From contig CALLQB010000005.1 in NCBI GenBank assembly GCA_938015295.1, positions 1 through 64,000 of the forward strand: a stretch of DNA of 64,000 nucleotides. The letters run 5' to 3'. The stretch is from an uncultured Acidimicrobiales bacterium (GTDB lineage Bacteria; Actinomycetota; Acidimicrobiia; Acidimicrobiales; SHLQ01). The notes beneath the pieces were generated by a model. It was not told the origin of the DNA. It saw only the letters and a list, made by a program, of their open reading frames with translations, and made no database searches. The translations under genes were made by a program, and so were the position numbers. Numbering within the stretch: position 1 is the first letter of the stretch; each line of letters opens with the position of its first letter. Below, in pieces: positions 11,753 to 31,897 of the stretch.

Positions 11753-11779
11753 TCGTTCAGGATAGAGGGCGCTGGCGTT

Positions 11780-12988
11780 TCAGCTCGCGGAATTACCTTC
11801 TGAGCGAGTCAAGGTAATGCCGAGCAGCGCTGCGCCTTCGATGAGGCCATCAACGGGCGAGGATGTTGTGGCATCTGCTGCACCCGGACCACTGTCGGCA
11901 AGAATCGCCATGGCGAGCTCGTCGAGTACGTCGCGTGCGGTGGCGGTGTGAAGATCGTTGTCGATAGCGCTACGGATGCGAGCAAGAAACGGTGTGGGGT
12001 CGGGTCCACCAGATGACCCTACGGCGCCTAACAAGCGAGCAAGTCGTTCATCGCCGTCTTCGATGTCTTCGTCGAACCATTCGAAACCGGCACGGTAGTG
12101 GTGGGCAAGCAACGCCAAACGAATCGCCCGCGGATCGTGGGTTTTGCGAAGTTCGCTCACAAAAACCAGATTGCCGAGCGACTTCGACATCTTCGTGCCC
12201 TCGTAACGCACCATCCCGCCATGCAGCCAGTGCTTGGCAAAAGGAGCGCCGTGGGCACTTTCGCTCTGGGCGACTTCGCACTCATGGTGCGGGAAGATCA
12301 GGTCGTCGCCGCCAGCGTGCAGGTCGAGCGGTTCGCCGAATGCCGCCCACGACATTGCCGAACACTCGATGTGCCAGCCAGGCCGTCCGGGGCCGAAAGG
12401 CGAGTCCCAGGACGGTTCGTCGTCGGCCGACGGCTGCCAGAGGATGAAGTCGAGCGGGTTCTTCTGGCGGGGATCGTCGGGGGTGCCGCCACGCTCGCGA
12501 GCAAACTCGATCATTTCTGCCTCGGAGTAGTGAGACAGCTTTCCGAAATCAGGGAACGTGGTGACATCGAAGTAGGTGATGCCTTCGACGGTGTAGGTCT
12601 GGCCCTTGGCCTCGAGGATCGACACCAAGGCGATGATGTCGTCGATCGACTCGGTGGCTCGAGGCTCAGCGTACGCCGGGCGCGCATCGAGCGATTCGAG
12701 GTCGCCGTGGAAACGTTCCATCTCCCGTGCAGCCAGCTCGAGAAAGTCGATGCCGAGCTCACGGGCTTTCGGCAGAATCGAGTCATCGACATCGGTGACG
12801 TTGCGAACCATCTGTACCTCGTGGCCCAGGTCTTCGAGACGTCGCACGATGAGGTCGATGGTGAGGTAGGTCATGGCGTGCCCGAGGTGGGTCGAATCGT
12901 AGGGCGTAATGCCACAAACGTAGATACGAACTACCGGACCCGGTTCGAACGCAATGACTTGTTGTGCTGCGGTGTCATACAACTTCAC
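11780..12988 (-). CDS. mshC: cysteine:1D-myo-inosityl 2-amino-2-deoxy-alpha-D-glucopyranoside ligase (mycothiol ligase)
   Basis: 402-aa CysRS paralog lacking the anticodon-binding C-terminus. N-terminus VRIYVCGITPYDSTHLGHAMTY and KMSKSLGN match the MshC subfamily of Actinobacteria. Confidence 0.8.
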   Translation of the reverse strand: MKLYDTAAQQVIAFEPGPVVRIYVCGITPYDSTHLGHAMTYLTIDLIVRRLEDLGHEVQMVRNVTDVDDSILPKARELGIDFLELAAREMERFHGDLESLDARPAYAEPRATESIDDIIALVSILEAKGQTYTVEGITYFDVTTFPDFGKLSHYSEAEMIEFARERGGTPDDPRQKNPLDFILWQPSADDEPSWDSPFGPGRPGWHIECSAMSWAAFGEPLDLHAGGDDLIFPHHECEVAQSESAHGAPFAKHWLHGGMVRYEGTKMSKSLGNLVFVSELRKTHDPRAIRLALLAHHYRAGFEWFDEDIEDGDERLARLLGAVGSSGGPDPTPFLARIRSAIDNDLHTATARDVLDELAMAILADSGPGAADATTSSPVDGLIEGAALLGITLTRSEGNSAS

Positions 12989-13044
12989 GCGGCGAAGGCT
13001 ACCGGGCGGGGGACGCTGCCCGGTAGCCGGTCATGTGGCTGTTG

Positions 13045-18238: not shown

Positions 18239-20320
18239 CTAGTTGTACTGAAACCAGCCGTTGCAGTGCAGAGTTTCGGCCTGCTTGTAGCCTTCGGCGC
18301 ATTTTGACCCTGGCCTCCAGCTGCCCTTTGATTTGACCTCAACGCCTTCGGTCTGGTGCACCACTCCATCGAGGACGATGCGATCGACTCGTAGGTTTCG
18401 ATCGATGGGCGGAGCGAAAAGGTCGTTGGTGAACCGCAGACGAATCTGCTCGGGTTGTAGTGGGCCGATGTGTTTGTAGGTGAACTCGTGGTACTTCGGC
18501 GTGTTGATATCGCCGCCAACGATCCACGTCGCTACGACCTTGCCGTCGATCTTGAGGTCCATAACCTCGTCGCCGTTGTTTCCGGCGGCGTAAATATGCA
18601 GAATTGAATCTGGTCCGGCTGCGGGGCTGGCAGGTTTCGCCGGGGCCTCGAGCGAGGGAGCGGTGCTGCTAGGCGGGGTGCCGGTGACGGTACCGGGGTC
18701 GACAACACCGGTTTTAGGGACAGTTGTTTTAGGGACAGTTGTTTTAGGGACAGTTGTGTTAGGGGCACTGCTCCTAGGGGTTGGAGCGACATCTGCGTAT
18801 TGGAAGAAGCCAGCGCAGGCAAGGATCTCGGTCGACTTGTTTCCCGCTTTGCAGCCGGTACCGCGGGTGAATCCGCCCTCGGAGTACACCGCAGCGTTGG
18901 TCGATGCGTACCAGTCGCCATCGACGGTGATGCCTTCGACGTGCAAGTTGCGGTCAAAGGAGCCGTCTGCATTGCGGAAGTCATTGATGAACTGCACCCG
19001 CACCCGTCCGGGAGTAACCGTCGATGGATGGGTGTAGTGAAACTCGCCTGCGGGCGAACCGATTTTGTTGGGCACTTTGTAGGTGGCTACCACGTTGCCA
19101 TCGATCTTGAGTTGCATCATCTCGGTACCGGTGAGACCCGTTGCTTTGATCACGATGAGCGACTTGGTCGACGTGGGTGCAGCGGTGGTTGCTGGTGCAG
19201 GTTTGGTGGTTGTGGGGGCCGCCGTGGTTGTGGGCGCTGGCCCCGACGCTCCGACTGCCTTCAGAAACGCCTTCTCGCCAGGTGACCAGAAGGTCGAGAA
19301 GACCGTTGAGGTGCCCTTGCCGTTGCTGCCCAACGCACCGCTTGCCCACTGCCAACGGTCGTTGTTGCCGAACATGATTGCATCGACACCCGCACGCAGG
19401 GCTGCTTTGACATCCGCGTCGATGTGATACGCGTTCGGCGCATTCCCCGGGCCGTGTTGAGGGCACGGATCCCAGTCAGGTTGGATGCCTTCGTAGCGCA
19501 TCTCGGCCGCCCAAACAGGCTTGTTGGTGCTGTTTACCACTGCGAGGAGGTCGCGGTACGCAGTGTCCGCGCTAACACAATGTCCCGTTTGGGGTGAAAG
19601 AAAGTCGAGCCATCCCTCGTTTGCGAACTGGGTGTGTCGATTGCGAAGTCCGGGCGTGTGATAGGTGGTTGGTTGCGAGCCGCCCTCGGATTCGAGCCCG
19701 GCCGCCAAGTTGCGCCAGATGTTGACGTCTTCGAAGTTGCAGAAGTTGTCGCCGCCCATGATCCAGTGATCGAGAGCGGGGTGATCGGCGAATGCTTTGC
19801 CGACTTGCTGACCGAGCCAGTAGGAGTTGTAGTCCTTGAGCGGTCCTTTCGAACCGCCGCCCTGACAGCCTTGGCGAAGGTCGTTGATGTAAAAGACACC
19901 CCAGATCGGCACCATGCCGACTTCGAGCCCACGAGCATGCGCGAGGTCGAGGAGCTTGCGAACGTGTTGGGTGTAGCCGGCATCGAGCTGGAACTGACCG
20001 TTCACCATCTTGGCGGTCGGGGCTCCGGCGCCGCGGCTTTTGGCCGTCATGCCGCCACCGGTGTGGTTGAACAGCGAGAGCCAAACGCCGGTGTAGCCGG
20101 CATTGGAAAGGTGATCGAAGTAGGTGGCTGCCTCGCTTTGGGTAGCCCAGAACGGGAGATCCCATGCGGTGTCGTAGATCGGTACAGCAGCCGCTGATTC
20201 AGCCGAGCGCTGCCCGGTGGTTAGCGACAGTGCCGAGAGAACGGTGCTGATGATGGCAAGGAGCGCGAGAAGTCGCCAGGCGCGCGTAGACGGGTTGGGT
20301 AGGTGTTCTTGCGCTGACAT
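18239..20320 (-). CDS. secreted glycoside hydrolase (TIM-barrel catalytic domain) with two C-terminal carbohydrate-binding modules
   Basis: 693 aa. Signal-peptide-like N-terminus, ~330-aa catalytic region, then two homologous ~120-aa modules (…CAGFFQY / …CNGWFQY) separated by Pro/Thr-rich linkers that include the repeat TTVPKTTVPKTTVPKT. Confidence 0.7.
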   Translation of the reverse strand: MSAQEHLPNPSTRAWRLLALLAIISTVLSALSLTTGQRSAESAAAVPIYDTAWDLPFWATQSEAATYFDHLSNAGYTGVWLSLFNHTGGGMTAKSRGAGAPTAKMVNGQFQLDAGYTQHVRKLLDLAHARGLEVGMVPIWGVFYINDLRQGCQGGGSKGPLKDYNSYWLGQQVGKAFADHPALDHWIMGGDNFCNFEDVNIWRNLAAGLESEGGSQPTTYHTPGLRNRHTQFANEGWLDFLSPQTGHCVSADTAYRDLLAVVNSTNKPVWAAEMRYEGIQPDWDPCPQHGPGNAPNAYHIDADVKAALRAGVDAIMFGNNDRWQWASGALGSNGKGTSTVFSTFWSPGEKAFLKAVGASGPAPTTTAAPTTTKPAPATTAAPTSTKSLIVIKATGLTGTEMMQLKIDGNVVATYKVPNKIGSPAGEFHYTHPSTVTPGRVRVQFINDFRNADGSFDRNLHVEGITVDGDWYASTNAAVYSEGGFTRGTGCKAGNKSTEILACAGFFQYADVAPTPRSSAPNTTVPKTTVPKTTVPKTGVVDPGTVTGTPPSSTAPSLEAPAKPASPAAGPDSILHIYAAGNNGDEVMDLKIDGKVVATWIVGGDINTPKYHEFTYKHIGPLQPEQIRLRFTNDLFAPPIDRNLRVDRIVLDGVVHQTEGVEVKSKGSWRPGSKCAEGYKQAETLHCNGWFQYN
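18711..18770 (-). repeat. 15-bp tandem repeat (4 units) encoding the TTVPK linker inside the glycoside hydrolase gene
   Basis: gttttagggacagtt x3 plus one diverged unit on the + strand. Locally AT-richer than the surroundings. Confidence 0.9.
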
Positions 20321-20476: not shown

Positions 20477-21430
20477 TCAGCGCCCAGGCCCAAGAATCCA
20501 GCTACGAAAGATCAGGCCTTCGGTCGCTGCTATCCGCGCGAGCGTCGCGTGTTGCTCGTCGCCACGCTCGCCGGGATGCAGCAGCGCAACGATGGTGCCA
20601 CCTGAGCCGGCGTAGTTCGCTGGTGCGTCGTGTGCCCGTACTAGTTCGATGAGGCGAACATGACTTGGCGAGAGGTCAGAGATCGACGCCCGTAGGTCGA
20701 AAGAGGCGTTCATCGCGCGCCCCAGTTCTACGGTGTCGCCAGCGACGAAGGCTGCTGCGGCGCTGGTCGCCTGTAGGGCAAGGTCGTTCATCGCCCGGCG
20801 AACGTCGGTTTCACCGGCGTCGTATCGGCTTCGAAGGTTTCCGTGAAAGACCTGACTTGGTTCGCTCGCCGCCTCATCGCTGAGGATGCAGAAACGAAAA
20901 CTTGAACCCGGTGTAAGCGGCGTCACCGTGAATAGCGCCTGCGCAGACGTTTCGGCCCGCGGAAAGCTCATGTCGCAGGTGCCGCCGTAGGTTTGAACGA
21001 CGCGGTCCTGCAGCCCTGCGGTGATGCCCAGTCGTGTTTCGACGGCGAGGGCGAGCTCCGGAAGTTCGGCATCGGCGATCTCGTGCTGATGCAAAGCAGC
21101 GATTGCGCGAAGTGTTGCGATTACCAAGGCGCTCGAGCCGGCTAGGCCGACCGACCGTGGAATGTTTGTTTGCCAATCGATTCGTAGTGGCCCAAGGTTC
21201 CAGTCGCTTATGACTTGAAGAGTGGCAAGAAACAGATCGGTGTCGTCGTGGGAGAACGCCTGGTCCGCTGGATTGGCGAATGTCCGGTGGTCACCGATCT
21301 GAAACTCGTTGGCTGCGCCGACGGACACCGTTGCGGTAAATGCGGGCACAACGGTTGCTAGTACTCGGCCGTTGTAGCCATCAGAGGGGTTGCCGGCAAG
21401 GGCGGCTCGAGCTGGCACATCTTTTCGCAC
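20477..21430 (-). CDS. GHMP-family sugar/acid kinase
   Basis: 317 aa. ATP-binding glycine-rich motif PRSVGLAGSSALVIA (GHMP motif II) and an N-terminal GNPSDGY-like motif. Confidence 0.6.
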   Translation of the reverse strand: MRKDVPARAALAGNPSDGYNGRVLATVVPAFTATVSVGAANEFQIGDHRTFANPADQAFSHDDTDLFLATLQVISDWNLGPLRIDWQTNIPRSVGLAGSSALVIATLRAIAALHQHEIADAELPELALAVETRLGITAGLQDRVVQTYGGTCDMSFPRAETSAQALFTVTPLTPGSSFRFCILSDEAASEPSQVFHGNLRSRYDAGETDVRRAMNDLALQATSAAAAFVAGDTVELGRAMNASFDLRASISDLSPSHVRLIELVRAHDAPANYAGSGGTIVALLHPGERGDEQHATLARIAATEGLIFRSWILGPGR

Positions 21431-21595: not shown

Positions 21596-22237
21596 GTGGC
21601 GGACTTTGTGGACGTAGTTATCCAATTTCCTACGATTATTTTTACTGTTGCTCTTGCGGCTTCATTCATCTTCTTTGTCCTGACAACGCTTCTGGGTCTG
21701 GGCGGTGAGGGCGGCTTCGACCTTGACGTTGACGTCGGCGGCGATGTTGGCGATCTTGACGCCGACCCAGGTGGCTTGTTCGAAAGTCTTGGGCTTGCAG
21801 GAATACCGCTTGCCGTTACCGCAACGTTGGTCTCGCTCTTCGCCTGGTTTTCGAGCCTGGTACTGATGTCTCTTGTGGGTGACCGCTCCACCGCAGTGCT
21901 GGTTGGGATCGGCTTCGTTGTCCTAGTGGTCGCGTTAGGGATTGGCTTTATCGCAGCGAGCTTTTTCTCCCGACCGATGTCCCGAATTTTCAACGCGACG
22001 GGCAGTCGTCGGCGCGGCGATCTTTCGGGGCAGCTGTGCACGGTCACCACACTCAAAGTCACCGAAGACTTCGGGCAGGCCGAAGTAGCCGATGCATCTG
22101 GCGGCAGCCACCTTGTGCAGATCAGATGTGGCGACGACAACAACCTCACGGCCGGCGATCAGGCGCTGATCTTTGGTCTCGATACCGCAACCGACGCCTA
22201 CCTTGTCTCTCCCGATGTGGGTGAAATCGGTGCGTAA
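21596..22237 (+). CDS. NfeD-family membrane protein (flotillin-associated, C-terminal OB-fold)
   Basis: 213 aa. GTG start with an AGGAG site 10 nt upstream. N-terminal TM helices, acidic/Gly loop, C-terminal soluble domain. Lies immediately upstream of the flotillin gene, as in nfeD-floT/yqiJK pairs. Confidence 0.7.
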   Translation: MADFVDVVIQFPTIIFTVALAASFIFFVLTTLLGLGGEGGFDLDVDVGGDVGDLDADPGGLFESLGLAGIPLAVTATLVSLFAWFSSLVLMSLVGDRSTAVLVGIGFVVLVVALGIGFIAASFFSRPMSRIFNATGSRRRGDLSGQLCTVTTLKVTEDFGQAEVADASGGSHLVQIRCGDDNNLTAGDQALIFGLDTATDAYLVSPDVGEIGA

Positions 22238-22247
22238 TCAGCCCCAC

Positions 22248-22282
22248 CTTCAGTACTCAATCTTCAGTACTCAATCTTCAGA
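22248..22282. repeat. 14-bp direct tandem repeat (2.5 units) in the nfeD-flotillin intergenic spacer
   Basis: cttcagtactcaat cttcagtactcaat cttcaga. Confidence 0.9.
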
Positions 22283-22345
22283 CCTTCTCTGCCCACCGGG
22301 CATATCTCCCTCTGCAAACCAGAGTTCAACGAAAGCGAGTAGTCC

Positions 22346-24382
22346 ATGACTATCTTGATTGGAATTGGCGTTGTCATTGCGTTCATCGTCGCCATCGCGC
22401 TGCTAGTCGGCCTGATGTTCAGCCGACTGTTTCGAAAGGTCCCGCAGGGCAAAGCGCTTGTGGTCAGCACGATGAACGACGTCGTGGTGTCCTTCACCGG
22501 CCGCGTCGTGCTGCCGGTGATCCACAAAGCCGAGATCATGGATACTTCGGTCAAAACGATCGAGATCGATCGGCGCGCCACCGAAGGGCTGATCTGCCGC
22601 GACAACATCCGGGCCGATATCAAGGTCAACTTCTTCGTGCGAGTCAACAACGTCGAAGAAGACGTCATCAAGGTGGCGCAGGCCATTGGCGTCGAGCGAG
22701 CAAGCCAACAGGAAACGCTCGAGGAGCTCTTCACCGCAAAATTCTCCGAAGCGCTCAAGACGGTGGGCAAGCGACTCGACTTCATCGATCTCTACACCGA
22801 ACGTCGCCGTTTCCGCGACGAAATCATTGAGGTCATCGGCACCGACCTCAACGGGTACGTGCTTGAGGATGCAGCGATCGACTATCTCGAACAGACACCG
22901 CTTTCGAGCCTCGACGACACCAACATTCTCGACGCACAGGGCATCCGCAAGATCACCGAACTCACCGCCCTTGAACATGTGGCAACCAACGTCGCCACCC
23001 GCGAAGAAGAAAAGCAGATCACCCAAAAAGACGTTGAAACCCGCGAAGCGGTGCTTGAGCTTCACCGCCAGCAAGCCGATGCTGAGGCCCGTCAGGCCCG
23101 CGAAATTCAGACGGTCCGCTCACGGGAGCAAGCAGAAACTGCCAAGGTCGCCGCTGAGGAACGCCTGCGTGCCGAAACAGCGCGCCTTCTCACCGAGCAA
23201 GACGTTGGGGTGCAAGAAGAGAACCGTCAGCGCGAGATCGAAGTTGCGGCGAAGAACCGAGAGCGAGTGGTCGCGATCGAAGAAGAACGCATCATCAAAG
23301 CGCGCGACCTCGAAGTGATTGCCCGCGAGCTCGAAACAGTCGGAGCGACCAAGGGTCTTGAAATCGAAAAAACCGAGATCGCCGAGATCGTGTCGAAACG
23401 AACCGCGGTCGAGAAATCGGTGGCCGAGGAAGAAGAAGCTATCAAGACGCTGCGAGTCGTCGAGGAAGCAAACCGCAACCGCGATGCACAGGTCATCGAA
23501 GCCGAAGCCGAAGCCGAAGGTGCATTCGTCAAAGACATCAAAGCCGCCGAGGCGGCAGAAAAGGCTGCGCAACACAAAGCCACCGAGCGGGTCACCTTGT
23601 CGCGAGCCGATCTCGAAGCGAGCGACCTTGATGCCAAGGCAATGACTCGTTTGGCCGAAGGAACCCAGGCCGAAGCTGCCGCAAAGGGCCTCGCCGAGGT
23701 GACCGTGCGCGAAGCCGACGCGGTCGCGATCGAAAAGGTGGGCTTGGCCGAAGTACGTGTCCGCGAAGCCGACGCCGGCGCAACCCAGAAAGAAGGCGTG
23801 GTCGGGGCTGCGGTTGTCCGCGAACTCGGTCTCGCTGAAGCTGAGGCCACCGAAGCGAAGCTTCGTGGAGAAGCGGCTGGTCTGACCGAGAAGGCCGCAG
23901 CAATGCGCGAACTTGAAGGTGTCGGCCAGGAGTTTGAAGAATTCACCCGTCGTCTCGATGCGCAAAAAGAGGTCGATCTCGCCAAGGTCGACGCTCAACT
24001 CGGTATCGGCACGGCACAGGCCGAGGCGTTGAAGGCCGGACTCGAAAGCGCAGACATCGACATCGTCGGAGGCTCAGATATCTTTGTCGATCGCCTCGTC
24101 GGCGCCGTAGCCGGTGGTAAATCGGTCGACGCCTTTGTCGAGAATTCGGGCACCACCAGCAAGGTGTTCGGCAAATACCTCGAAGGCGATGGCGACATCG
24201 TTGCCGACCTCACCGAGCTCACCGCAGGGCTTGGCGGCGCGGGTGTACGCGACCTCACTATCTCGGCATTCCTCGCCCAGATGATGAAGAACTCCAGCGG
24301 CGACACCAGCGCAAAGATCAATAACATCATCGAGGCCGTCGCCCGAGAGGGAATCGGCGACCTGCCGATCGGCGATCTCTAA
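22346..24382 (+). CDS. flotillin family SPFH-domain protein (FloT/YqiK-like)
   Basis: 678 aa. N-terminal TM anchor, SPFH/band-7 domain, long Glu/Ala/Arg-rich coiled-coil flotillin region, Gly/Ala-rich C-terminus. Confidence 0.9.
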   Translation: MTILIGIGVVIAFIVAIALLVGLMFSRLFRKVPQGKALVVSTMNDVVVSFTGRVVLPVIHKAEIMDTSVKTIEIDRRATEGLICRDNIRADIKVNFFVRVNNVEEDVIKVAQAIGVERASQQETLEELFTAKFSEALKTVGKRLDFIDLYTERRRFRDEIIEVIGTDLNGYVLEDAAIDYLEQTPLSSLDDTNILDAQGIRKITELTALEHVATNVATREEEKQITQKDVETREAVLELHRQQADAEARQAREIQTVRSREQAETAKVAAEERLRAETARLLTEQDVGVQEENRQREIEVAAKNRERVVAIEEERIIKARDLEVIARELETVGATKGLEIEKTEIAEIVSKRTAVEKSVAEEEEAIKTLRVVEEANRNRDAQVIEAEAEAEGAFVKDIKAAEAAEKAAQHKATERVTLSRADLEASDLDAKAMTRLAEGTQAEAAAKGLAEVTVREADAVAIEKVGLAEVRVREADAGATQKEGVVGAAVVRELGLAEAEATEAKLRGEAAGLTEKAAAMRELEGVGQEFEEFTRRLDAQKEVDLAKVDAQLGIGTAQAEALKAGLESADIDIVGGSDIFVDRLVGAVAGGKSVDAFVENSGTTSKVFGKYLEGDGDIVADLTELTAGLGGAGVRDLTISAFLAQMMKNSSGDTSAKINNIIEAVAREGIGDLPIGDL

Positions 24383-24403
24383 GTCAAGCGGCCGTTCACC
24401 ATT

Positions 24404-27400
24404 GTGACTGACGTACAAACCGAAGCCGTCGCTGCTGACGCGGTGGCCGACGCCGCCGGGGCAGGCACCTACGAGCTGCTCCGCGCCCGGCTTGTCGAAC
24501 ATGCTGACGAACTGGGACGCCGCGCGGCCCGGCTCAACGAGCAACGGTTGGATGCCTTCGGCACCAGTCGGTTCGAGCTCGTCGGCAGCGAACGGATTCG
24601 CACCGCGAACAATTGTGTGTCGCGCGATATCGCAGCAGTCGGCGACCAACTGCTGTTTGGTTACAACGTATTCATCGGTCTCAAAAGCGAAACGTCGATC
24701 GACGATGTCTTTAGCGCTCACCGCCTAACGACAGGAGACGACGGCGCCTTCGCGTTGTCGGTGCTTGACGAGGGCAGCGACGTCGGCTGGCTCCACGACC
24801 CGGCCTTTCTCAACGACTTCGCCGAGCTCACCCGCTATTACAAGGAGAACAAACTTCTTCAGATTCGACGCACTGAGGGTCGCTTGCTCGCGGTGTTTCA
24901 GATCGGCAATTCCATCGACGACATCCGCGTGTTTCGTTGGGAAATTTCACCCGACGGTGCAGCCCGGTATCTCGACAACCGGGGCGAACGCGATCATCAG
25001 TATCCACCCCAGTTCGGCTTCGAATGGACGCCGGTAAACCGCGAGCAGCAGGTCGGTGGACGAACGCCACACGTCAACATCGACGATCGTGTCTTTGTCT
25101 ACCTTGTCGGCGGCAAGCTCGAGATCAGGCTCGAAGACAACACCGAAACTGGACTAACCGTTCTCGCCGAGACTATCGACAACGCCGACCAGTCGGTCGA
25201 CGATGCCGACATGTCCTTCGCCTTGGTCGGCGACCTGGTTTTGCTGCGAGTGAAGCCCTACCTCGAAGACCACGACAGGTACTTCGTCGTCAACCTCTTC
25301 AACCGAACCGCCCTGCGTGCTGACGCGCTTGGCCAGTCTTGCCAGCTTCTTCCCGAGGATCATGGGCTCATTTTCCCGGGCGGCTATTACCTCCGCGAGG
25401 GCGACACAAAGATCTTCGATCTCGAAACTGCCTCGATGGAATTCAAGGCCGAGATCCGCTCGCCCAACGGCGAAGATGTGTTGTACGCCTTCCATCAGCG
25501 CAGCGAAGGTCGCACAATTCTCCTCAGCTACAACATGATTCGTCGAGAGGTAGCGCCACCGATCAACTGCCATGGCTACAGCCTGTTCGAGAACGGCACC
25601 CTCATCGTTTTTCGTGACGATGGTGAGCCGACTCGGGTGCACCCGATGCAGATTTGGGCGACGCCGTTTGTCAGTGCCGACTTCCACGCCCGACAACCGC
25701 TCGGCGACGGATTCCTCGATCGCATCGGCAATGCCGAAGCGGTGCGCGGCGTCAGCGAGGGGCTCAACATTCGGCGGCTTGTCGCTGATGTCGAACCGTC
25801 GGTCGCGGTGTTCGAGGCGTTGTCTACCAGCACGGTGCGAGTACTCGATGCCCACCCGTGGCTGGCTGATGATGCCGCAGGTGACCTCGCGTCGCCGCTG
25901 CACGAGATCCGGTCGACATCCGAGCTGATCATCGACGAGTTCGAAAAGGCCGAGTCGCTTAAGGCCACCGCCGTCGATGTAGTAGCAGAAGCCAGGACCG
26001 ACATCGATGCGGTAGTCGACGAACTTCGTCAGCAGAAGCCTTCGACCACCCAGCAGTACGTCACCGCGTTGCAGAAACTTCGCCGCCAACAGGGCCACCT
26101 GCTCACGATCCGCGATGTTCGCTACGTGGACAACGAGGCCCTCGACGAGCTCAGTGTCTCTGTACAGGAGGCGTTCGATCAACTGTCGAGCCAGGCTGTC
26201 GAGTTCCTTGCCGACGACGGCGCCTTTGAAGGATTCCATACCGACGTCGCACAACTGACCAACACGATCGAGGCGACATCGAAGGTCACCGAGCTCGCCC
26301 CGCATCTTGAGGCGCTCGACGAGATCGGCGGCGGACTCGACCTTCTCACCGAAGTAGTCGGCGGCCTCGACATCGAAGATGCCACCGTTCGCACCAGCAT
26401 TTTTGAACGCGTGTCGGTGGTGATGGGCCTACTCAACCGGTCGCGGGCCGTAGCCGAGAACCAGCGTCGCACGTTGGGCGACGCCGAAAGCAGCGCGGCG
26501 TTTGGTGTCGAGTTTGGTTTGTTTTCCCAATCGGTCACCGCCGAATTGTCGCGGTCGACGACCCCCGAGCGTGCTGACGCTGCGCTTGGGACGCTGCTGG
26601 TGCAGCTGGAAAATCTCGAGAGCAGGTTCGGCGAATCAGACGAGTACCTCGACCAGATCGGAACCAAACGCGAAGACGTGTACGAGGCGTTCTCGTCGCG
26701 CAAACAAACGCTGATCGACGACCGGCAGCGTTCGGCCCGACGGCTCGTCGACGCATCAGAACGCATTCTTACCAGCGTCAATCGCCGGATCGAAGGGTTC
26801 GAATCGCCCGACGAGATCAACGCCTTCTTTGTTGCCGACCCGCTGGTAGCAAAGGTTCGCACGATCGCCGAAGACCTCCGCGGACTCGATGAGCAGGTTC
26901 GGGCCGACGAAGTGCTTCGCACGCTTGAAACAGCGAAAGAGGAAGCCGCCCGGTCGTTGCGCGACCGCACCGACATCTTCGAAGAAGGCGGCCAGGTCAT
27001 TCGTCTTGGCCGGCACCGGTTCAGCGTCGACTCGCAGAACCTCGAACTCACCACCGCCGTGGTCGACGACGAACTCAACATCGTTCTCACCGGGACCGAC
27101 TTTCGCGAACCGGCGACCGCTAGCGAGCTTGAAGCGAGCGAGCTCGCAGAGCTTCGCCCGTTCTGGGATCAGACGCTCGTCTCTGAGCGTGCGAATTTTA
27201 GTCGGGTCGAGTTTCTCGCAACCTCAATTCTGGCCGATTCGGCATCGGGTCGAAACGAACTATCGATGCCGCTGCTCTGCGAGGCTGCAGGCTCAGCAAC
27301 TGGCCTTGAAGAACTTGTTCGCTCCGTCGGAGAAAAGCGGGTTGACGAAGGTTACGACCGAGGGGTTCACGACCACGACGCCGCAAAGATCCTTGCGGTT

Positions 27401-29518
27401 CTTGTGCAGCGCTGGGACGAAGTGGCACTGCTGCGCTTCGAGCCTGACGCACGGGCGCTGGCTCAGGTGTTCTGGGCGCACGGGGTCGACGAAGACACCC
27501 GACGAGATCTCCTCGCCCGCGGTATCAGTCTCGGTCGTCTCCGCGCCACCTTCGCAAACTCGCCGGCACTCGATGATTTCGTCGCTGACCTAACGAGCCG
27601 ACTGGCAGGCTTTGCCGAGCAGTATCGGTCGATCGCTGGCGACGTCGACCTGGTCGCCACCGCCAGGTATCTGTTTGAAGAACTTGCTGAAGAGCCACTG
27701 GCGTTTGTCGTCAGTAGTGCTGCAGCAGAACTTCGCGATGCCCTGCAGCTGCACCACGACACGTCAGGCATCGCCGAGGCGTTCGCAGAACTCGATGGCC
27801 TCGCCGATCGGCACCGGTTGTTGCATGCATGGTTCGAGGCTTTCGCTGCGGCCGAACGTCCCGCGTCGATTCCGTATGTCCCCGAAGCGGTTGCGTTGCT
27901 CATGGCAGCCGACCTTCCGCACCAGGCAGGAGCCGTCGACCTGCAGTGCACCGTCGAAGGCCTGCTTGCCCAACATCCCCGCATCCGTAACCAGTCTCTC
28001 GAGTTTCGCTACGACCAGCTGCTTGCTGAGGGCGAGCAATACCGTCGCGACGTGGTTCCCGGTTTCCGGTCGTATCAAACGCAACGCCACCAGTTGTTGA
28101 CAGCAGCACGGCGTCGGCTCCGGCTCGACGAGTTCACACCGAAGGTGATGAGCGCCTTTGTGCGTAATCAGCTGATCGACCAGGTGTATCTGCCCTTTAT
28201 TGGCGACAACCTTGCGAAACAGCTCGGAACGATCGAAGGTGGCCGCACCGATCAGATGGGCCTCCTCTTGCTGATCTCACCTCCGGGCTACGGCAAGACG
28301 ACGCTGATGGAATACGTCGCAAACCGTCTTGGCATGGTTTTTGTGAAAGTAAACGGTCCGGCGCTCGGCCATGGCGTCGACTCGCTCGACCCCACCGAAG
28401 CGCCCAACGCTACAGCGGCCCAAGAGGTCGACAAGATAAACTTTGCCCTCGAAATGGGCAGCAATGTGCTGCTCTATCTCGACGACATTCAGCACACGAA
28501 CCCCGAACTTCTGCAGAAGTTCATTTCGATGTCTGACGCGCAGCGCCGGATGGAGGGCGTGTGGAACGGCCGCACGCGAACCTATGACCTCCGTGGCAAA
28601 CGGTTCGCCGTGGTCATGGCCGGCAACCCCTACACCGAGTCCGGCGAACGCTTCCAGATTCCCGACATGCTCGCCAACCGCGCCGACACGTACAACCTTG
28701 GCGATGTGCTCACCGGCAACGATCAGCAGTTTGCACTCAGCTATCTCGAGAACTCGCTCACGTCGAATCCCGTGCTCGCCAGCCTTACCACTCGCGACCC
28801 GGCCGACACACTCAAACTCATCGCAATGGCACAGGGCGATGCCGTGTCGCCCGACGACCTTTCGCATCCGTACTCGGCGGTCGAGATCGACGAACTTGTC
28901 GCGACCTTCCGTCGGTTGATCCGGGTGCAGGAAGTACTGCTTGCGGTGAATCAGACCTACATCAGTTCAGCGTCGCAAGAAGACGAGTTCCGCACCGAGC
29001 CCCGGTTCCAGCTCCAGGGTTCGTACCGAAATATGAACCGTCTCGCCGAGAAGGTTTTGCCGGTGATGAACGACGACGAACTCGAAGCGCTGCTCGACGA
29101 TCACTACGTCGGCGAAGCCCAGACACTCACCACCGGAGCCGAGGCCAACCTGCTCAAGCTCCGTGAACTCCGCGGCGTCCTCGACGAGCAAGATGCGGCG
29201 CGTTGGGACGACATCAAGAACGGCTATCGGCGCACCAAACTGATGGGCGGCGCCGACGACGACCCGATGGTGCGCGTCGCAGGCGCCGTCAGCGGCATCT
29301 CTGAGCAACTTCGTGCGTTGGCCGCCCAGCGTGGCCCCGACGCGGCCGAGGCAATGGCGCTGTTCGACGAGACGCTGCGCGAGTTGATTCGAGCCGACGA
29401 AAAAAGCCGCGAGGAACGTCGGGCCGCCTATCGAGCGCGAGCCACCGACCAAGGTTCGGGCCCTAAGAGCACGCTGAAGCCGCCGCCTCCCGCTCCTGGC
29501 GACGAGTCAGCGGGATAG
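24404..29518 (+). CDS. giant AAA+ ATPase (1704 aa): large uncharacterised N-terminal domain, long helical middle region, single P-loop ATPase module near the C-terminus
   Basis: GTG start 21 nt after the flotillin stop. Walker A LLISPPGYGKTTL (~nt 28280), Walker B VLLYLDDIQH (~nt 28470), sensor-like VVMAGNPY. Overall layout resembles proteins that databases label 'DNA repair ATPase' / DUF3686-AAA, which I cannot verify here. Confidence 0.8.
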   Translation: MTDVQTEAVAADAVADAAGAGTYELLRARLVEHADELGRRAARLNEQRLDAFGTSRFELVGSERIRTANNCVSRDIAAVGDQLLFGYNVFIGLKSETSIDDVFSAHRLTTGDDGAFALSVLDEGSDVGWLHDPAFLNDFAELTRYYKENKLLQIRRTEGRLLAVFQIGNSIDDIRVFRWEISPDGAARYLDNRGERDHQYPPQFGFEWTPVNREQQVGGRTPHVNIDDRVFVYLVGGKLEIRLEDNTETGLTVLAETIDNADQSVDDADMSFALVGDLVLLRVKPYLEDHDRYFVVNLFNRTALRADALGQSCQLLPEDHGLIFPGGYYLREGDTKIFDLETASMEFKAEIRSPNGEDVLYAFHQRSEGRTILLSYNMIRREVAPPINCHGYSLFENGTLIVFRDDGEPTRVHPMQIWATPFVSADFHARQPLGDGFLDRIGNAEAVRGVSEGLNIRRLVADVEPSVAVFEALSTSTVRVLDAHPWLADDAAGDLASPLHEIRSTSELIIDEFEKAESLKATAVDVVAEARTDIDAVVDELRQQKPSTTQQYVTALQKLRRQQGHLLTIRDVRYVDNEALDELSVSVQEAFDQLSSQAVEFLADDGAFEGFHTDVAQLTNTIEATSKVTELAPHLEALDEIGGGLDLLTEVVGGLDIEDATVRTSIFERVSVVMGLLNRSRAVAENQRRTLGDAESSAAFGVEFGLFSQSVTAELSRSTTPERADAALGTLLVQLENLESRFGESDEYLDQIGTKREDVYEAFSSRKQTLIDDRQRSARRLVDASERILTSVNRRIEGFESPDEINAFFVADPLVAKVRTIAEDLRGLDEQVRADEVLRTLETAKEEAARSLRDRTDIFEEGGQVIRLGRHRFSVDSQNLELTTAVVDDELNIVLTGTDFREPATASELEASELAELRPFWDQTLVSERANFSRVEFLATSILADSASGRNELSMPLLCEAAGSATGLEELVRSVGEKRVDEGYDRGVHDHDAAKILAVLVQRWDEVALLRFEPDARALAQVFWAHGVDEDTRRDLLARGISLGRLRATFANSPALDDFVADLTSRLAGFAEQYRSIAGDVDLVATARYLFEELAEEPLAFVVSSAAAELRDALQLHHDTSGIAEAFAELDGLADRHRLLHAWFEAFAAAERPASIPYVPEAVALLMAADLPHQAGAVDLQCTVEGLLAQHPRIRNQSLEFRYDQLLAEGEQYRRDVVPGFRSYQTQRHQLLTAARRRLRLDEFTPKVMSAFVRNQLIDQVYLPFIGDNLAKQLGTIEGGRTDQMGLLLLISPPGYGKTTLMEYVANRLGMVFVKVNGPALGHGVDSLDPTEAPNATAAQEVDKINFALEMGSNVLLYLDDIQHTNPELLQKFISMSDAQRRMEGVWNGRTRTYDLRGKRFAVVMAGNPYTESGERFQIPDMLANRADTYNLGDVLTGNDQQFALSYLENSLTSNPVLASLTTRDPADTLKLIAMAQGDAVSPDDLSHPYSAVEIDELVATFRRLIRVQEVLLAVNQTYISSASQEDEFRTEPRFQLQGSYRNMNRLAEKVLPVMNDDELEALLDDHYVGEAQTLTTGAEANLLKLRELRGVLDEQDAARWDDIKNGYRRTKLMGGADDDPMVRVAGAVSGISEQLRALAAQRGPDAAEAMALFDETLRELIRADEKSREERRAAYRARATDQGSGPKSTLKPPPPAPGDESAG

Positions 29519-29584
29519 AATCGACGCGAGCGACTGAACATTCCTGGGCACGTCCTGGGCGGGAAACGAAAGAGGACAACACGA

Positions 29585-30310
29585 ATGCCACTACACAGCG
29601 AGTTGACGCAGTTCGGAGAAATTCCGGCCGGCGAGCAGCAGTTTCAGCTACAGAACAAAAAGCTGCTTCGGGTGACCCTGGCTTATGGGCCGGTCGAAGC
29701 AATGAGCGGATCGATGGTGGCATACCAAGGTGCTGCCACCTTCGAGAACAAAGGTTCGGGCAGCATGAGCAAGATGCTCAAGAAGGCGACCACCGGCGAG
29801 GGCGTCAAGATGATGCACGTCGGCGGAACGGGCGAGGTCTTCTTGGCTGACAAGGCCCACGACATCCAGGTGATGTATCTCGAGAACGACTCGATTTCGG
29901 TCAACGGGTCAAACGTCCTCGCGTTCTCAAGTTCGATTGAATGGGACATCCAGAAGCTGAGCGGCGGGGGAGTTGCTGGAGCAATGGCAGGTGGCCTGTT
30001 CAACGTGACGCTTCGCGGCACCGGCTACGTGGCAATCACCACCGATGGCCCGCCCGTCATGCTCGATGTTTCTGCCGGCACAACCTTCGGCGATCCGCAG
30101 GCCGTGGTGATGTGGACCTCCGGGGTCCAGATGAACCTCAAGACCGATACCACCGGCGGCCTGAAATCACTGGCTCGGGGTGGTTCGGGCGAAACCTTCC
30201 AGATGGATTTCCACGGTCAAGGTTTTGTGCTGGTGCAGCCTTCGGAAGGCCGTATTTCGCCGAGTACAGGCGATGGCGGCGGTGGCCTCCTCGGAGCACT
30301 CTCGGGTTAA
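29585..30310 (+). CDS. AIM24 family protein (DUF124 / TIGR00266)
   Basis: 241 aa. Gly-rich beta protein with the pattern conserved in bacterial AIM24-like proteins (…MLDVSAGTTFGDPQAVVMWTSGVQ…). Good ribosome-binding site (GAAAGAGGA). Confidence 0.7.
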   Translation: MPLHSELTQFGEIPAGEQQFQLQNKKLLRVTLAYGPVEAMSGSMVAYQGAATFENKGSGSMSKMLKKATTGEGVKMMHVGGTGEVFLADKAHDIQVMYLENDSISVNGSNVLAFSSSIEWDIQKLSGGGVAGAMAGGLFNVTLRGTGYVAITTDGPPVMLDVSAGTTFGDPQAVVMWTSGVQMNLKTDTTGGLKSLARGGSGETFQMDFHGQGFVLVQPSEGRISPSTGDGGGGLLGALSG

Positions 30311-30930
30311 CCCGCTTCGGGTACCGTTTCGAAAAGTGTGCTCGCATGATCAGCGGCCGCCGACAACCAGTCGGCCCGCTGGTCATCAGAGCTATCGGTG
30401 GTTGGGCCAAAGTGCAGTCGATCGACTGTTGGGTCGCCACAAAATGGCAACACACACCTTGTCCAGATCTGCGAGAGCGGATCGCCGAGGAGAGCTTCGC
30501 GCTCTGCGGGCGTATCGCCGGTGGTAATCACCAGCGCCGATTGCAATCGCAGGAGGCCCTCGGGTTCACCGCTCGCTTCGGCCAACCGGTAGGCCACACC
30601 GGGAATCAGCACCCGGTCCAACCAGCCGGCAAGAATTGCCGGAGGTTTTCCCCACCAGTTTGGGTGCACGACAACCAGGCCATCTGCTTCGGCAATCTCC
30701 GAGCGATAGTGGGCGACCAACCCGGTAGCGGAAGGAGTGTGGAGATCTTCGATCGCTTTGCCGATAGAGAAACATTCGTCGGCTTGCAAAATCGGATCAA
30801 AATTCTCCGCATAAAGATCATGAAAGCTGACCTGATGTCCCGCAGCGGCCAGCGCCTGCACGACGGTGTCGGCAATCGCGTGGTTGAAACTTTCGGTTCT
30901 TGGATGGGCAAGAAGAACGGTGACCAGCAT
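30307..30930 (-). CDS. NAD(P)H-dependent oxidoreductase, flavodoxin-like fold (NAD(P)H dehydrogenase (quinone) family)
   Basis: ORF trimmed to the ATG at 30930 (MLVTVLLAHPRTESF…). Motif VVVHPNWWGKPPAILAGWLDRVL is typical of the Flavodoxin_2 / MdaB / KefF family. Confidence 0.75.
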   Translation of the reverse strand: MLVTVLLAHPRTESFNHAIADTVVQALAAAGHQVSFHDLYAENFDPILQADECFSIGKAIEDLHTPSATGLVAHYRSEIAEADGLVVVHPNWWGKPPAILAGWLDRVLIPGVAYRLAEASGEPEGLLRLQSALVITTGDTPAEREALLGDPLSQIWTRCVLPFCGDPTVDRLHFGPTTDSSDDQRADWLSAAADHASTLFETVPEAG

Positions 30931-30985
30931 GGCGTAACCGTAGGGCGGCAAGAGCAGTCGAAGCTCACCCGTTAACCTAGAGAAC

Positions 30986-31897
30986 ATGGCAATCCGCAAA
31001 AAAATGGCAAAGAAAGCGGCGAAGAAGGCACTCAGCGCCGACATGATTCCCGCGCCGGTGCTCGAAGCAATCGGCAAGGGGATGGTCGAAGGCGTCGACA
31101 AGGCGGTCACCAAGCGTTGGCAGCGGGCGCTCGACCGAGCGGCCGAGACCCACGGCACCACCGAGCAGCGCATTGCCGAGGTGTACCAGGCATTTCAGAA
31201 AGAACTCACCGCAGCTGGCGCAGCCACAGGCGCCGCCGCAGCAACACCCGGTATTGGCACAGCCGCTGCAGCAAGCTGGCTTAGCGCCGATGTCGTGTGG
31301 TTGGCTCTTCGCTCGGCAGATCTCATCATGACGATTGCGGCAATCCACGGCCATACAGATTCAACGGTCGATCAACGGCGCGCGTGGGTGCTGTCGATTC
31401 TTGCCTTCGGCGACGAAGCGGCCGTTGAGTTTGGAACACTGGTAGAGCAGATGAATATCGGCACCTCCGCGTCGGCGGGAATGCGGATGCCCCTCGAGGT
31501 GATCGAACGGGTCAATACCTCACTCGGTTCGCACGTCCTCACCAAATACGGAACCCGACGCGGCATTGCGACCGTTGGTCGCCTGCTGCCGTTCGGTATC
31601 GGCGCGGTTATCGGCGGCGGCGCGAACTTCACGATGACCCGCAACCTTGCCAAACACGCCGACGCCTTCTTTCGAAACGCGCCGCTAGAAGAGTCGGGTT
31701 TCAACGCCGTCGAGGGCGAACGTTTTGTCATCGCCGCAGAAAGCCACGACCGATTCTCGGGCGCGTTACCTGCCGGAGAAGACTCGTATGGTCACCTTCC
31801 GCCGCCTCCTGTTGGTGCTGCCGGTTCCGAGCTACCTCCAGGCGACGACACGTCATCGAAACGCAGCCGGTTCGCTAGCCGGTGGAGTCGTAGCTGA
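30986..31897 (+). CDS. hypothetical protein (possibly EcsC-like)
   Basis: 303 aa. Lys-rich N-terminus, Ala/Gly-rich hydrophobic core. Family assignment is uncertain. Confidence 0.4.
   Translation: MAIRKKMAKKAAKKALSADMIPAPVLEAIGKGMVEGVDKAVTKRWQRALDRAAETHGTTEQRIAEVYQAFQKELTAAGAATGAAAATPGIGTAAAASWLSADVVWLALRSADLIMTIAAIHGHTDSTVDQRRAWVLSILAFGDEAAVEFGTLVEQMNIGTSASAGMRMPLEVIERVNTSLGSHVLTKYGTRRGIATVGRLLPFGIGAVIGGGANFTMTRNLAKHADAFFRNAPLEESGFNAVEGERFVIAAESHDRFSGALPAGEDSYGHLPPPPVGAAGSELPPGDDTSSKRSRFASRWSRS

Follow-up and report, generated by a model that had tools for sequence, protein, structure and literature searches.

Three consecutive genes of the window (the whole 64,000-nucleotide stretch of DNA that was analyzed) form a conserved unit. 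These genes, which encode a YqiJ/DUF1449-like membrane protein, a flotillin, and a giant AAA+ ATPase, are inherited together and in the same order in at least seven phyla, and they are often translationally coupled. The evidence for this linkage, the features of the three proteins, and the possible role of the ATPase in membrane stress are described below.

Locus layout and conserved linkage of three genes

All genes of interest lie on the forward strand. Gene 1 (21596..22237, GTG start) encodes a YqiJ/DUF1449-like, NfeD-analogous protein of 213 aa, with the Shine-Dalgarno motif GGAAGGAG about 10 nt 5' of the start codon. Gene 2 (22346..24382, ATG start) encodes a YqiK/FloT-type flotillin (SPFH/Band-7) of 678 aa, and gene 3 (24404..29518, GTG start) encodes the giant AAA+ ATPase of 1704 aa, which carries the NCBI name "DNA repair ATPase". 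These are followed by an AIM24/DUF124-family gene (29585..30310, ATG start, 241 aa), with successive intergenic gaps of 108, 21, and 66 nt. The coordinates, strands, and gaps given in the original prediction matched our list of open reading frames (ORFs) exactly, and independent gene calls of a public protein collection had identical ORF lengths. A terminator-like site was found in none of the three gaps, including that between 24382 and 24404.

The genome loci that we examined were the 80 best among at least 570 that matched the window. Of 82 related loci for which upstream DNA was available, 81 have the flotillin gene directly 5' of the ATPase gene and in the same orientation; these comprise 75 of 76 genome loci and six more (pQBR103, Deinococcus, Vibrio, Hymenobacter, Proteus, and a member with only 29% N-domain identity). 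One locus, L004, has an ATPase gene but neither of the two membrane-protein genes. Homologues of gene 1 preceded the flotillin gene in about 72 of the 76 loci with upstream DNA among those best 80 of at least 570. The genes are also tightly spaced: the estimated median gap between the flotillin stop and the ATPase start was 4 nt, with a 4-nt overlap in 29/76 loci, and that between the YqiJ-like gene and the flotillin gene was 13.5 nt. A lack of conserved synteny, which had been named as the result that would speak against a flotillin-ATPase association, is decisively contradicted by these counts, and chance juxtaposition of the two genes was rejected on the same basis.

No other conserved neighbor, upstream or downstream, emerged from all-against-all ORF clustering, which was done on a reduced ORF set, or from the flanking genes of the related loci. 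One cluster antisense to the flotillin gene proved to be spurious, as it arose from antisense ORFs in high-GC DNA. Two candidate fusion proteins were also considered. P0314 is not a flotillin-ATPase fusion; P0379 does contain flotillin residues 189-596 fused to an ATPase portion that starts at about residue 248, but this is one metagenomic protein with a truncated N-terminus, which may have arisen through faulty assembly and was not used as evidence of interaction.

Features of the three proteins

The gene-1 protein has three to four hydrophobic segments (residues 14-32, about 61-94, and 101-119), an acidic Asp/Gly loop, and a beta-rich C-terminal domain that is predicted to be cytoplasmic. 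It had been labeled NfeD; Pfam, NCBIfam, and PADLOC gave no usable match for it, however, and neither NfeD (PF01957) nor YqiJ_OB (PF07290) was matched in Pfam by the window protein or by 26 members of its family. A PDB sequence search with the family profile returned noise only. The family alignment contains a conserved C-terminal block, G..C.V.T..V...FGQAEV...G....VQVR...L..G..ALIF.YD, and an hhalign comparison of the family profile with Escherichia coli YqiJ covered 126 columns including this block (E 2.8e-4, probability 41%). In addition, BLASTP aligned E. coli YqiJ with a member of the family at E 7e-4, Pfam YqiJ_N faintly matched 3 of the 26 members, and relatives carry the NCBI name DUF1449. 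The name NfeD is thus better replaced by YqiJ/DUF1449-like, a label that these matches support weakly.

Gene 2 had been predicted to encode a flotillin, and this label held, even though Pfam misses the protein: Band_7 gave no match at E values up to 10, NCBIfam and PADLOC gave none either, and a PDB sequence search yielded only noise. BLASTP aligned the 678-aa protein with E. coli YqiK over 457 aa (27% identity, E 4e-34), beginning at the membrane anchor and continuing across the SPFH domain to residue about 460 in the YqiK coiled-coil region. Its homologues with 59-60% identity contain PF01145, and their names assign them to the flotillin family or describe them as SPFH domain-containing. The protein, whose composition is 14.6% Ala and 13.0% Glu, has one transmembrane segment at residues 3-21, followed by R27, R30, and K31, and a long coiled-coil region rich in these two residues, Ala and Glu. 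Module-linked flotillins share 72-74% identity in the SPFH region versus 27-34% to YqiK, and they form a separate, tightly conserved subfamily. The C-terminal extension was considered as a conserved docking site and rejected, because the tail is conserved at 21-29% only; no docking site can therefore be named there.

The original prediction of a giant single-module AAA+ ATPase was borne out for gene 3 by HMM searches, which gave DUF3686, DUF7902, and one AAA module. The DUF3686 domain (residues 36-484; 24509..25855, forward strand) matched positions 1-447 of the 448-position PF12458 profile (E 4e-184). A helical region of about residues 437-1280 (25712..28243, forward strand) includes DUF7902 (residues 607-689; Pfam E 2.3e-26). 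The single AAA+ core, about residues 1281-1430 (28244..28693, forward strand), is recognized by Pfam AAA and AAA_5, with an AAA score of 29.9 bits against a cut-off of 21.2. The architecture thus runs from an N-terminal helix and a beta-propeller-like DUF3686 domain through long helical bundles to one AAA+ module; no hydrophobic segment was found, and the 1704-aa protein is predicted to be soluble. The AlphaFold2 (AF2) model of residues 1-700 (mean pLDDT 84.6) shows a helix (residues 22-52) and then strands (residues 58-419), and its best Foldseek matches in the PDB were beta-propellers (nucleoporin, clathrin terminal domain, WD40, and paraoxonase; E 3e-6 to 1e-3) with low TM-scores. Among 4348 ATPase homologues, the 120 matches listed measured 1599-1936 aa and had the same architecture, and the family of the N-domain comprised 764 cluster representatives, whose near-complete members were mostly 1500-2000 aa long.

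In the AF2 model of residues 1101-1704 (pLDDT 78.6), the AAA+ core was most similar to RuvB, NorQ/CbbQ (MoxR), and MCM (Foldseek E about 5e-7). When the ATPase profile was used for a sequence search of the PDB, classical AAA proteins were matched in their Walker A region only. The core carries the motifs Walker A (SPPGYGKTT), Walker B (LDDIQH), sensor-1 (AGNPYTE), and Arg (PDMLANRA), which could be read in 86 of 89 scanned related loci and are essentially invariant. Walker B was Asp-Asp, not Asp-Glu, in all 86 readable loci, so that the usual catalytic Glu is absent. The resemblance of the module to RuvB, MoxR, and MCM types more than to classical unfoldases, together with a Walker B motif without this Glu, suggests that the AAA+ module could operate as a slow switch rather than as a motor.

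Earlier description, the Psp link, and competing explanations

The combination had been regarded as undescribed. The same trio architecture is, however, already present in the neighborhood survey of Ravi et al. (mSystems 2024, PMC11237479), who described operons in which a YqiJ-YuaF transmembrane protein is followed by a Band-7, coiled-coil, and flotillin protein and then by a beta-propeller, coiled-coil, and AAA-ATPase protein. These operons occur either with a CesT/Tir-PspA pair or in an "abbreviated" form without it, and were tied to the phage-shock membrane-stress network with a proposed role in sub-membrane dynamics, the neighborhood of Dokdonia donghaensis IS97_2772 serving as an example. 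That description is in silico and leaves the ATPase family unnamed (PMC11237479). The window trio, which shares the three protein architectures and the gene order, is therefore an operon type already catalogued in silico (2020/2024). We infer that the window ATPase belongs to the family of Ravi et al. because of the same architecture and because of a Hymenobacter plasmid locus, in which genes for a Tir-like chaperone, PspA, a DUF1449 protein, a flotillin-like protein, and the ATPase follow one another in this order, with the ATPase being 41% identical to that of the window. Unlike the full form, the window has a divergent GHMP kinase gene 5' of gene 1 and no adjacent CesT/Tir-PspA pair, and hence the "abbreviated" form of the operon.

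Genes of membrane stress were found beside several other copies of the trio: a yjfJ-type PspA cluster is immediately 5' of it on pQBR103, PspA is likewise 5' of it in L077, and a TelA gene directly follows the ATPase gene in L085. PspA/IM30 was near the trio in about 3 of 82 loci, and tblastn with two PspA proteins detected none in the 64-kb window. The small number of PspA-adjacent loci and this negative result suggest that the Psp link may hold for a subset of the operons only.

Competing explanations of the locus concern first its extent. The original prediction had joined all four genes into one functional membrane-microdomain system, and the AIM24 assignment itself is firm (PF01987, E 3.6e-35, profile positions 2-204 of 205, the TIGR00266 score being under its cut-off). 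The gene is on the same strand as the trio, the 66-nt gap before it has no terminator-like hairpin, and the arrangement is repeated in the closest relative, L081, where AIM24 lies 3' of an ATPase gene whose product is 82% identical. Although genes 1-3 are co-conserved far beyond chance, AIM24 is not: it was present within 10 kb on either side of the ATPase gene in 0 of 80 genome loci (the best 80 of at least 570) and as the immediate downstream gene in 0/65. It is already gone in L082 and L083 (ATPases 77% and 60% identical), and in the relative with the 77% identical ATPase its place is taken by a convergent histidine-kinase gene. Furthermore, AIM24 has its own ribosome-binding site (AAGAGGA, 8 nt 5' of the ATG), and an EcsC gene directly follows it in L081, with the same EcsC near in the window, so AIM24 may belong with EcsC. 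The four-gene system is largely refuted by synteny, and we consider it highly improbable. AIM24 is instead a lineage-specific downstream neighbor outside the conserved module, appended in the lineage of the window, unlike the operons of Ravi et al., and in this genome it may be read through from the operon.

Two further explanations concern the function of the trio itself. One is a mobile anti-phage or abortive-infection system, with the ATPase as its putative sensor or switch and a membrane-directed effector formed by the flotillin and the YqiJ-like protein. In its favor, the trio is patchy across distant phyla, yet the ATPase is 47-58% identical between Actinomycetota, Myxococcota, and Gammaproteobacteria, which for a protein of about 1,700 aa suggests horizontal transfer; copies reside on megaplasmids (pQBR103, Deinococcus, Hymenobacter, and Streptomyces); and a large NTPase with a membrane protein is a common layout of defense systems. 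Nevertheless, a PADLOC search with the four proteins returned only P-loop-level matches (IetA and mad8, E ≥ 0.002), nuclease, protease, and pore-forming toxin domains were not detected, and the flanking genes vary, most of them having housekeeping or regulatory functions, and defense genes do not recur among them, whereas the specific neighbors that do recur, PspA and TelA, are membrane-stress genes. A defense role is accordingly improbable in our judgment. We give still less credence to the view that the ATPase repairs or translocates DNA and that its adjacency to flotillin is without mechanistic meaning. Pfam and NCBI do use the names "ATPase involved in DNA repair" and "DNA repair ATPase", and RuvB and MCM are among the best structural matches of the AAA+ core; these two, however, do not outscore NorQ/CbbQ, which are non-DNA ATPases. 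Domain searches detected no DNA-binding domain; LexA, RecA, and other repair genes were not recurrent nearby, and a near-obligate, often overlapping operon with two membrane proteins would be unexpected for a repair enzyme. A literature search for DUF3686/PF12458 and for flotillin/SPFH with DNA repair ATPase retrieved no paper and no experiment behind the name, which finds no support in this analysis; the genomic context of DUF3686 ATPases points to membrane stress, not DNA repair.

Possible role of the ATPase and comparison with known systems

We lean, by a modest degree, toward an ATP-driven remodeler that would act on a flotillin scaffold at the cytoplasmic face of the membrane during envelope stress, as the most likely function. 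SPFH proteins form large membrane-attached oligomers, and HflK/C encloses the AAA+ protease FtsH. In the trio, hydropathy and charge predict that all soluble parts are cytoplasmic (the SPFH and coiled-coil regions of the flotillin, the YqiJ-like protein's C-terminal domain, and the ATPase in its entirety), and basic residues follow the last membrane segment in both membrane proteins. The flotillin and its YqiJ-like partner may assemble into an oligomeric scaffold at the inner side of the membrane, onto which the ATPase would dock via its propeller and helical arm. ATP binding and hydrolysis would then assemble, disassemble, or reorganize the scaffold or the proteins held there, as part of an envelope-stress or membrane-maintenance response, in which PspA, encoded near the trio or at another genomic site, may cooperate. 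The physical coupling of a flotillin scaffold to a mechano-enzyme, as originally suggested, is a reasonable inference.

E. coli K-12 yqiJ-yqiK lacks the ATPase gene, as had been stated, with yqiK being followed by sibD/ibsD, and Bacillus subtilis yuaF-floT presumably lacks it as well. In both operons, as in the window, a membrane protein with a C-terminal beta domain precedes an N-terminally anchored flotillin with SPFH and coiled-coil regions. The window differs from yqiJ-yqiK in its ATPase gene and in the distance of its proteins, since gene 1 matches YqiJ only weakly and the SPFH domain is about 30% identical to that of YqiK, to which the window flotillin is homologous. The operon logic is the same: SPFH genes are usually accompanied in their operons by a gene for an NfeD-type protein (PMC2636767).

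The pairing of an SPFH scaffold with a hexameric AAA+ enzyme at the membrane, as proposed for the trio, is also found in HflK/HflC-FtsH. FtsH is a membrane-anchored zinc protease of the classical AAA type, the SPFH domains of HflK/C are periplasmic, and hflKC and ftsH are not co-operonic. In contrast, the window ATPase is predicted to be soluble, has no protease domain, measures about 1,700 aa, carries a propeller and a helical arm, and is RuvB/MoxR-like; the window SPFH domain is predicted to be cytoplasmic and the window genes are co-operonic. ESCRT-III/Vps4 and PspA-linked AAA+ systems embody the same concept, that is, a self-assembling scaffold at the membrane face with an ATPase gene in the operon, and the trio adjoins PspA in some genomes. 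Flotillin, however, is not homologous to ESCRT-III/PspA, and the window ATPase, which has no MIT domain, falls outside the classical Vps4-like AAA proteins.

A more specific version of the remodeling proposal, which we regard as conceivable though unlikely, is that the ATPase serves as a "Vps4 for SPFH scaffolds", a dedicated factor that would use ATP to assemble or disassemble cytoplasmic flotillin cages, taking hold of the flotillin cap or the YqiJ OB domain with its arm of propeller and helices. If so, it would be the first known enzyme controlling the dynamics of bacterial flotillin microdomains, and as a prokaryotic machine it would resemble coat proteins in placing helical repeats after a beta-propeller. 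We know of no regulator of bacterial flotillin assembly and turnover, and the ATPase, being almost always co-operonic with one flotillin subfamily in at least seven phyla, is an obvious candidate. It also offers an experimental handle in tractable hosts such as Streptomyces, Myxococcus, Proteus mirabilis, and Pseudomonas fluorescens SBW25 with pQBR103.

Products of the four genes

Reading of the open reading frames (ORFs) recovered exactly the four genes, common strand and gaps originally predicted: a GTG-initiated gene for a YqiJ/NfeD-like protein (21596-22237, + strand, 213 aa), an ATG-initiated flotillin gene (22346-24382, +, 678 aa), a GTG-initiated gene for a giant AAA+ ATPase (24404-29518, +, 1704 aa), and an ATG-initiated AIM24 gene (29585-30310, +, 241 aa), separated by 108, 21, and 66 nt. 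For all four, identical products of equal length are present in the public protein collection, so other gene callers picked the same boundaries. A ribosome-binding site, GGAAGGAG, lies approximately 10 nt 5' of the GTG start of the first gene, and AAGAGGA lies 8 nt 5' of the ATG of the AIM24 gene. No terminator-like hairpin was found in the three intergenic gaps, and the 3' end of the ATPase gene folded no better than shuffled sequence. The window has a G+C content of about 60%, and close relatives are Acidimicrobiales MAGs.

Three to four hydrophobic segments and an acidic Asp/Gly loop characterise the first product, which ends in a beta-rich C-terminal block that is conserved. A profile of its 26-member family was aligned with E. 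coli YqiJ by hhalign (E 2.8e-4, probability 41%), BLASTP of YqiJ against one family member gave E 7e-4, and Pfam YqiJ_N was faint in 3 of the 26 members. Relatives in gammaproteobacteria and Hymenobacter are named "DUF1449" by NCBI, as is E. coli YqiJ's own record. These comparisons point to a real but weak relationship to YqiJ; we call the protein YqiJ/NfeD-like by architecture and position, with a putative OB fold.

For the second product, permissive searches of Pfam, NCBIfam, and PADLOC gave no match, nor did a PDB sequence search, and its flotillin label therefore needed a test. Alignment with E. coli YqiK (E 4e-34, 27% identity across 457 residues) spanned the membrane anchor and SPFH domain and reached into the coiled coil, and those of its more than 8000 homologs that belong to Streptomyces are named "flotillin family" or "SPFH domain-containing", some with PF01145. 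The protein has a single N-terminal hydrophobic segment followed by basic residues, and its Ala and Glu content is high. Alignment and homolog names thus uphold its assignment as a YqiK/FloT-type flotillin despite the missing Pfam match, and most of the protein is predicted to lie in the cytoplasm.

HMM searches, proposed with the original prediction for the last two proteins, matched the 241-aa product cleanly to AIM24/DUF124 (E 3.6e-35) and the 1704-aa product to DUF3686 (residues 36-484, full length, E 4e-184), DUF7902 (607-689), and a single AAA module (1288-1412), all three in Pfam; hydropathy analysis of the ATPase revealed no hydrophobic segment. In an AlphaFold2 model of ATPase residues 1-700, built on 32 sequences (mean pLDDT 84.6), residues 22-52 form a long helix, 58-419 an all-beta domain, and 437-699 further long helices. 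The PDB matches that Foldseek gave for this N-terminal part were beta-propeller proteins, several with helical repeats after the propeller: a nucleoporin, clathrin (terminal domain and linker), WD40 proteins, and paraoxonase (E 3e-6 to 1e-3); TM-scores were low, so the modelled all-beta domain is considered beta-propeller-like at fold level only. A model of residues 1101-1704 had a pLDDT of 78.6, and structure comparison placed the AAA+ core nearest RuvB, NorQ/CbbQ (MoxR type), and MCM (E ~5e-7); in sequence searches, similarity to classical AAA proteins was confined to the surroundings of Walker A.

The motifs SPPGYGKTT (Walker A), hDDIQH (Walker B; 28481-28498, residues 1360-1365), AGNPYTE, and PDMLANRA were readable in 86 of 89 related loci, among which Walker A, sensor-1, and the Arg motif are essentially invariant; this constancy indicates that the nucleotide site is under strong selection. 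Walker B carries Asp-Asp instead of the usual Asp-Glu, the usual catalytic Glu being Asp in all 86, and ATP hydrolysis may accordingly be slow, regulated, or otherwise unusual. Clustered at 50%, the DUF3686 domain family comprises 764 representatives, with near-complete members mostly of 1500-2000 aa; shorter entries look like gene fragments.

Conservation of the trio

The ATPase alignment was used to scan one genome per species, giving at least 570 loci, and the best 80, from Actinomycetota, Myxococcota, Acidobacteriota, Planctomycetota, and Gammaproteobacteria, were kept with 10 kb on each side. By tblastn with the window proteins, 75 of the 76 loci with upstream DNA have a flotillin gene immediately before the ATPase gene in the same orientation, and in approximately 72 a homolog of the first gene precedes flotillin. 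The flotillin-ATPase pairing recurs in six more loci: the P. fluorescens SBW25 megaplasmid pQBR103, Deinococcus, Vibrio campbellii, Hymenobacter, Proteus mirabilis, and a metagenomic member whose N-domain is just 29% identical. The gap between flotillin stop and ATPase start has an estimated median of 4 nt, with a 4-nt overlap in 29/76 loci, and that between the first gene and flotillin a median of 13.5 nt across related loci. ORF clustering found no further conserved family near the trio in more than 11 loci, and a Pfam scan of the genes immediately downstream (65) and upstream (64) found none in more than three. The three genes are co-inherited and tightly coupled, and the ATP site is conserved.

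AIM24 was absent from all 80 loci. It follows the ATPase gene only in the closest relative (ATPase 82% identical), which shares the whole neighbourhood; a relative with a 77% identical ATPase has a convergent histidine-kinase gene in its place, and one with a 60% identical ATPase also lacks it. AIM24 is therefore a neighbour of the trio specific to this lineage.

Membrane-stress context and proposed function

In a Hymenobacter sp. DG25B plasmid (2559-11872), the full operon is present, with genes for a Tir-like chaperone, PspA/IM30, a DUF1449 protein, a flotillin-like protein, and a "DNA repair ATPase" in that order. On pQBR103 (record 85112-97641), a well-studied megaplasmid that offers a tractable experimental system, the trio directly follows a yjfJ-type cluster (PspA, rhomboid, DUF2491, DUF350, DUF1190, and a glutathionylspermidine-synthase-like gene), and in a Cellvibrionaceae locus PspA is immediately upstream. 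The most distant member examined (L085, N-domain 29% identical) has a gene for TelA (toxic anion resistance) after the ATPase gene and in the same orientation (11001-12221). PspA occurs near the trio in a minority, approximately 3 of 82 loci; no specific neighbours recur other than PspA and TelA, and these cases consistently point towards membrane stress.

Literature searches on DUF3686/PF12458 by family and name combinations found no paper, and a broader search led to Ravi et al. (mSystems 2024, PMC11237479; preprint 2020), who report this operon type, and describe abbreviated operons with only these proteins as spread more widely and possibly acting with PspA encoded elsewhere. The architecture derived independently here and the Hymenobacter locus agree with their description, so that the window contains an abbreviated operon from an actinobacterium. 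The locus is a further example of a computationally described operon type, not a new kind of system; of the original reading as an undescribed four-gene membrane-microdomain system, the flotillin-ATPase coupling stands, whereas AIM24 membership and novelty do not. Its contrast with the canonical operon was borne out: the classical E. coli yqiJ-yqiK operon (operon logic in PMC2636767) has no ATPase gene.

All soluble domains of the trio are predicted to share one compartment. Flotillin and its YqiJ-like partner would build a scaffold on the cytoplasmic membrane face, on which the ATPase would dock via its propeller and helical arm, spending ATP to assemble, disassemble, or reorganise the scaffold or its clients in envelope stress. 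We lean slightly towards this scheme as a whole, most of its uncertainty sitting in the remodelling step. HflK/C-FtsH and ESCRT-III/Vps4 are functional analogies to the flotillin-ATPase pair, not relatives.

A role of the trio in defence appears unlikely, as PADLOC matched no defence system among the four proteins and neighbour scans found no recurring defence genes. That the ATPase is a true DNA repair enzyme or translocase, as its database name "DNA repair ATPase" implies, is harder still to credit, as no DNA-repair genes recur nearby either; the present analysis corrects this misleading name. Equally improbable is a single system of all four genes, contiguous as they are here, given the absence of AIM24 from 80/80 related loci. 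For experiments on how flotillins are regulated, the locus is a good starting point.

Flanking genes and variant loci

In the closest relative, an EcsC-family gene directly follows AIM24 (11316-13021 of that locus). In the window (29585-31897), a minus-strand flavodoxin_2/FMN-reductase ORF (30307-31173), which at its 5' end as annotated overlaps the start of the EcsC ORF (30986), separates the two; the gene with which AIM24 belongs may be EcsC and not the ATPase. The 108-nt spacer between the first gene and flotillin contains a perfect 14-bp tandem repeat, CTTCAGTACTCAAT (22248-22281, 2.4 copies), which may serve in regulation or have arisen by slippage.

The sole examined locus with an ATPase gene but without a flotillin or YqiJ-like gene upstream (L004, 9133-15408) has a GH114 gene ahead of it, and its ATPase ORF is extendable to 2091 aa. 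In P0379, a single metagenomic protein of 1798 aa truncated at the N-terminus, flotillin residues 189-596 run in frame into the ATPase, which starts at about its residue 248, either by natural deletion fusion or as an assembly artefact. Flanking the Hymenobacter operon are a gene for a LexA-family regulator and a LytTR/histidine-kinase pair. Upstream of the window operon, on the minus strand, lie genes for an apiosidase-like glycoside hydrolase with two CBM60 modules (18239-20320, 693 aa) and a GHMP-family kinase (20477-21430), which flank the operon in the closest relative too.
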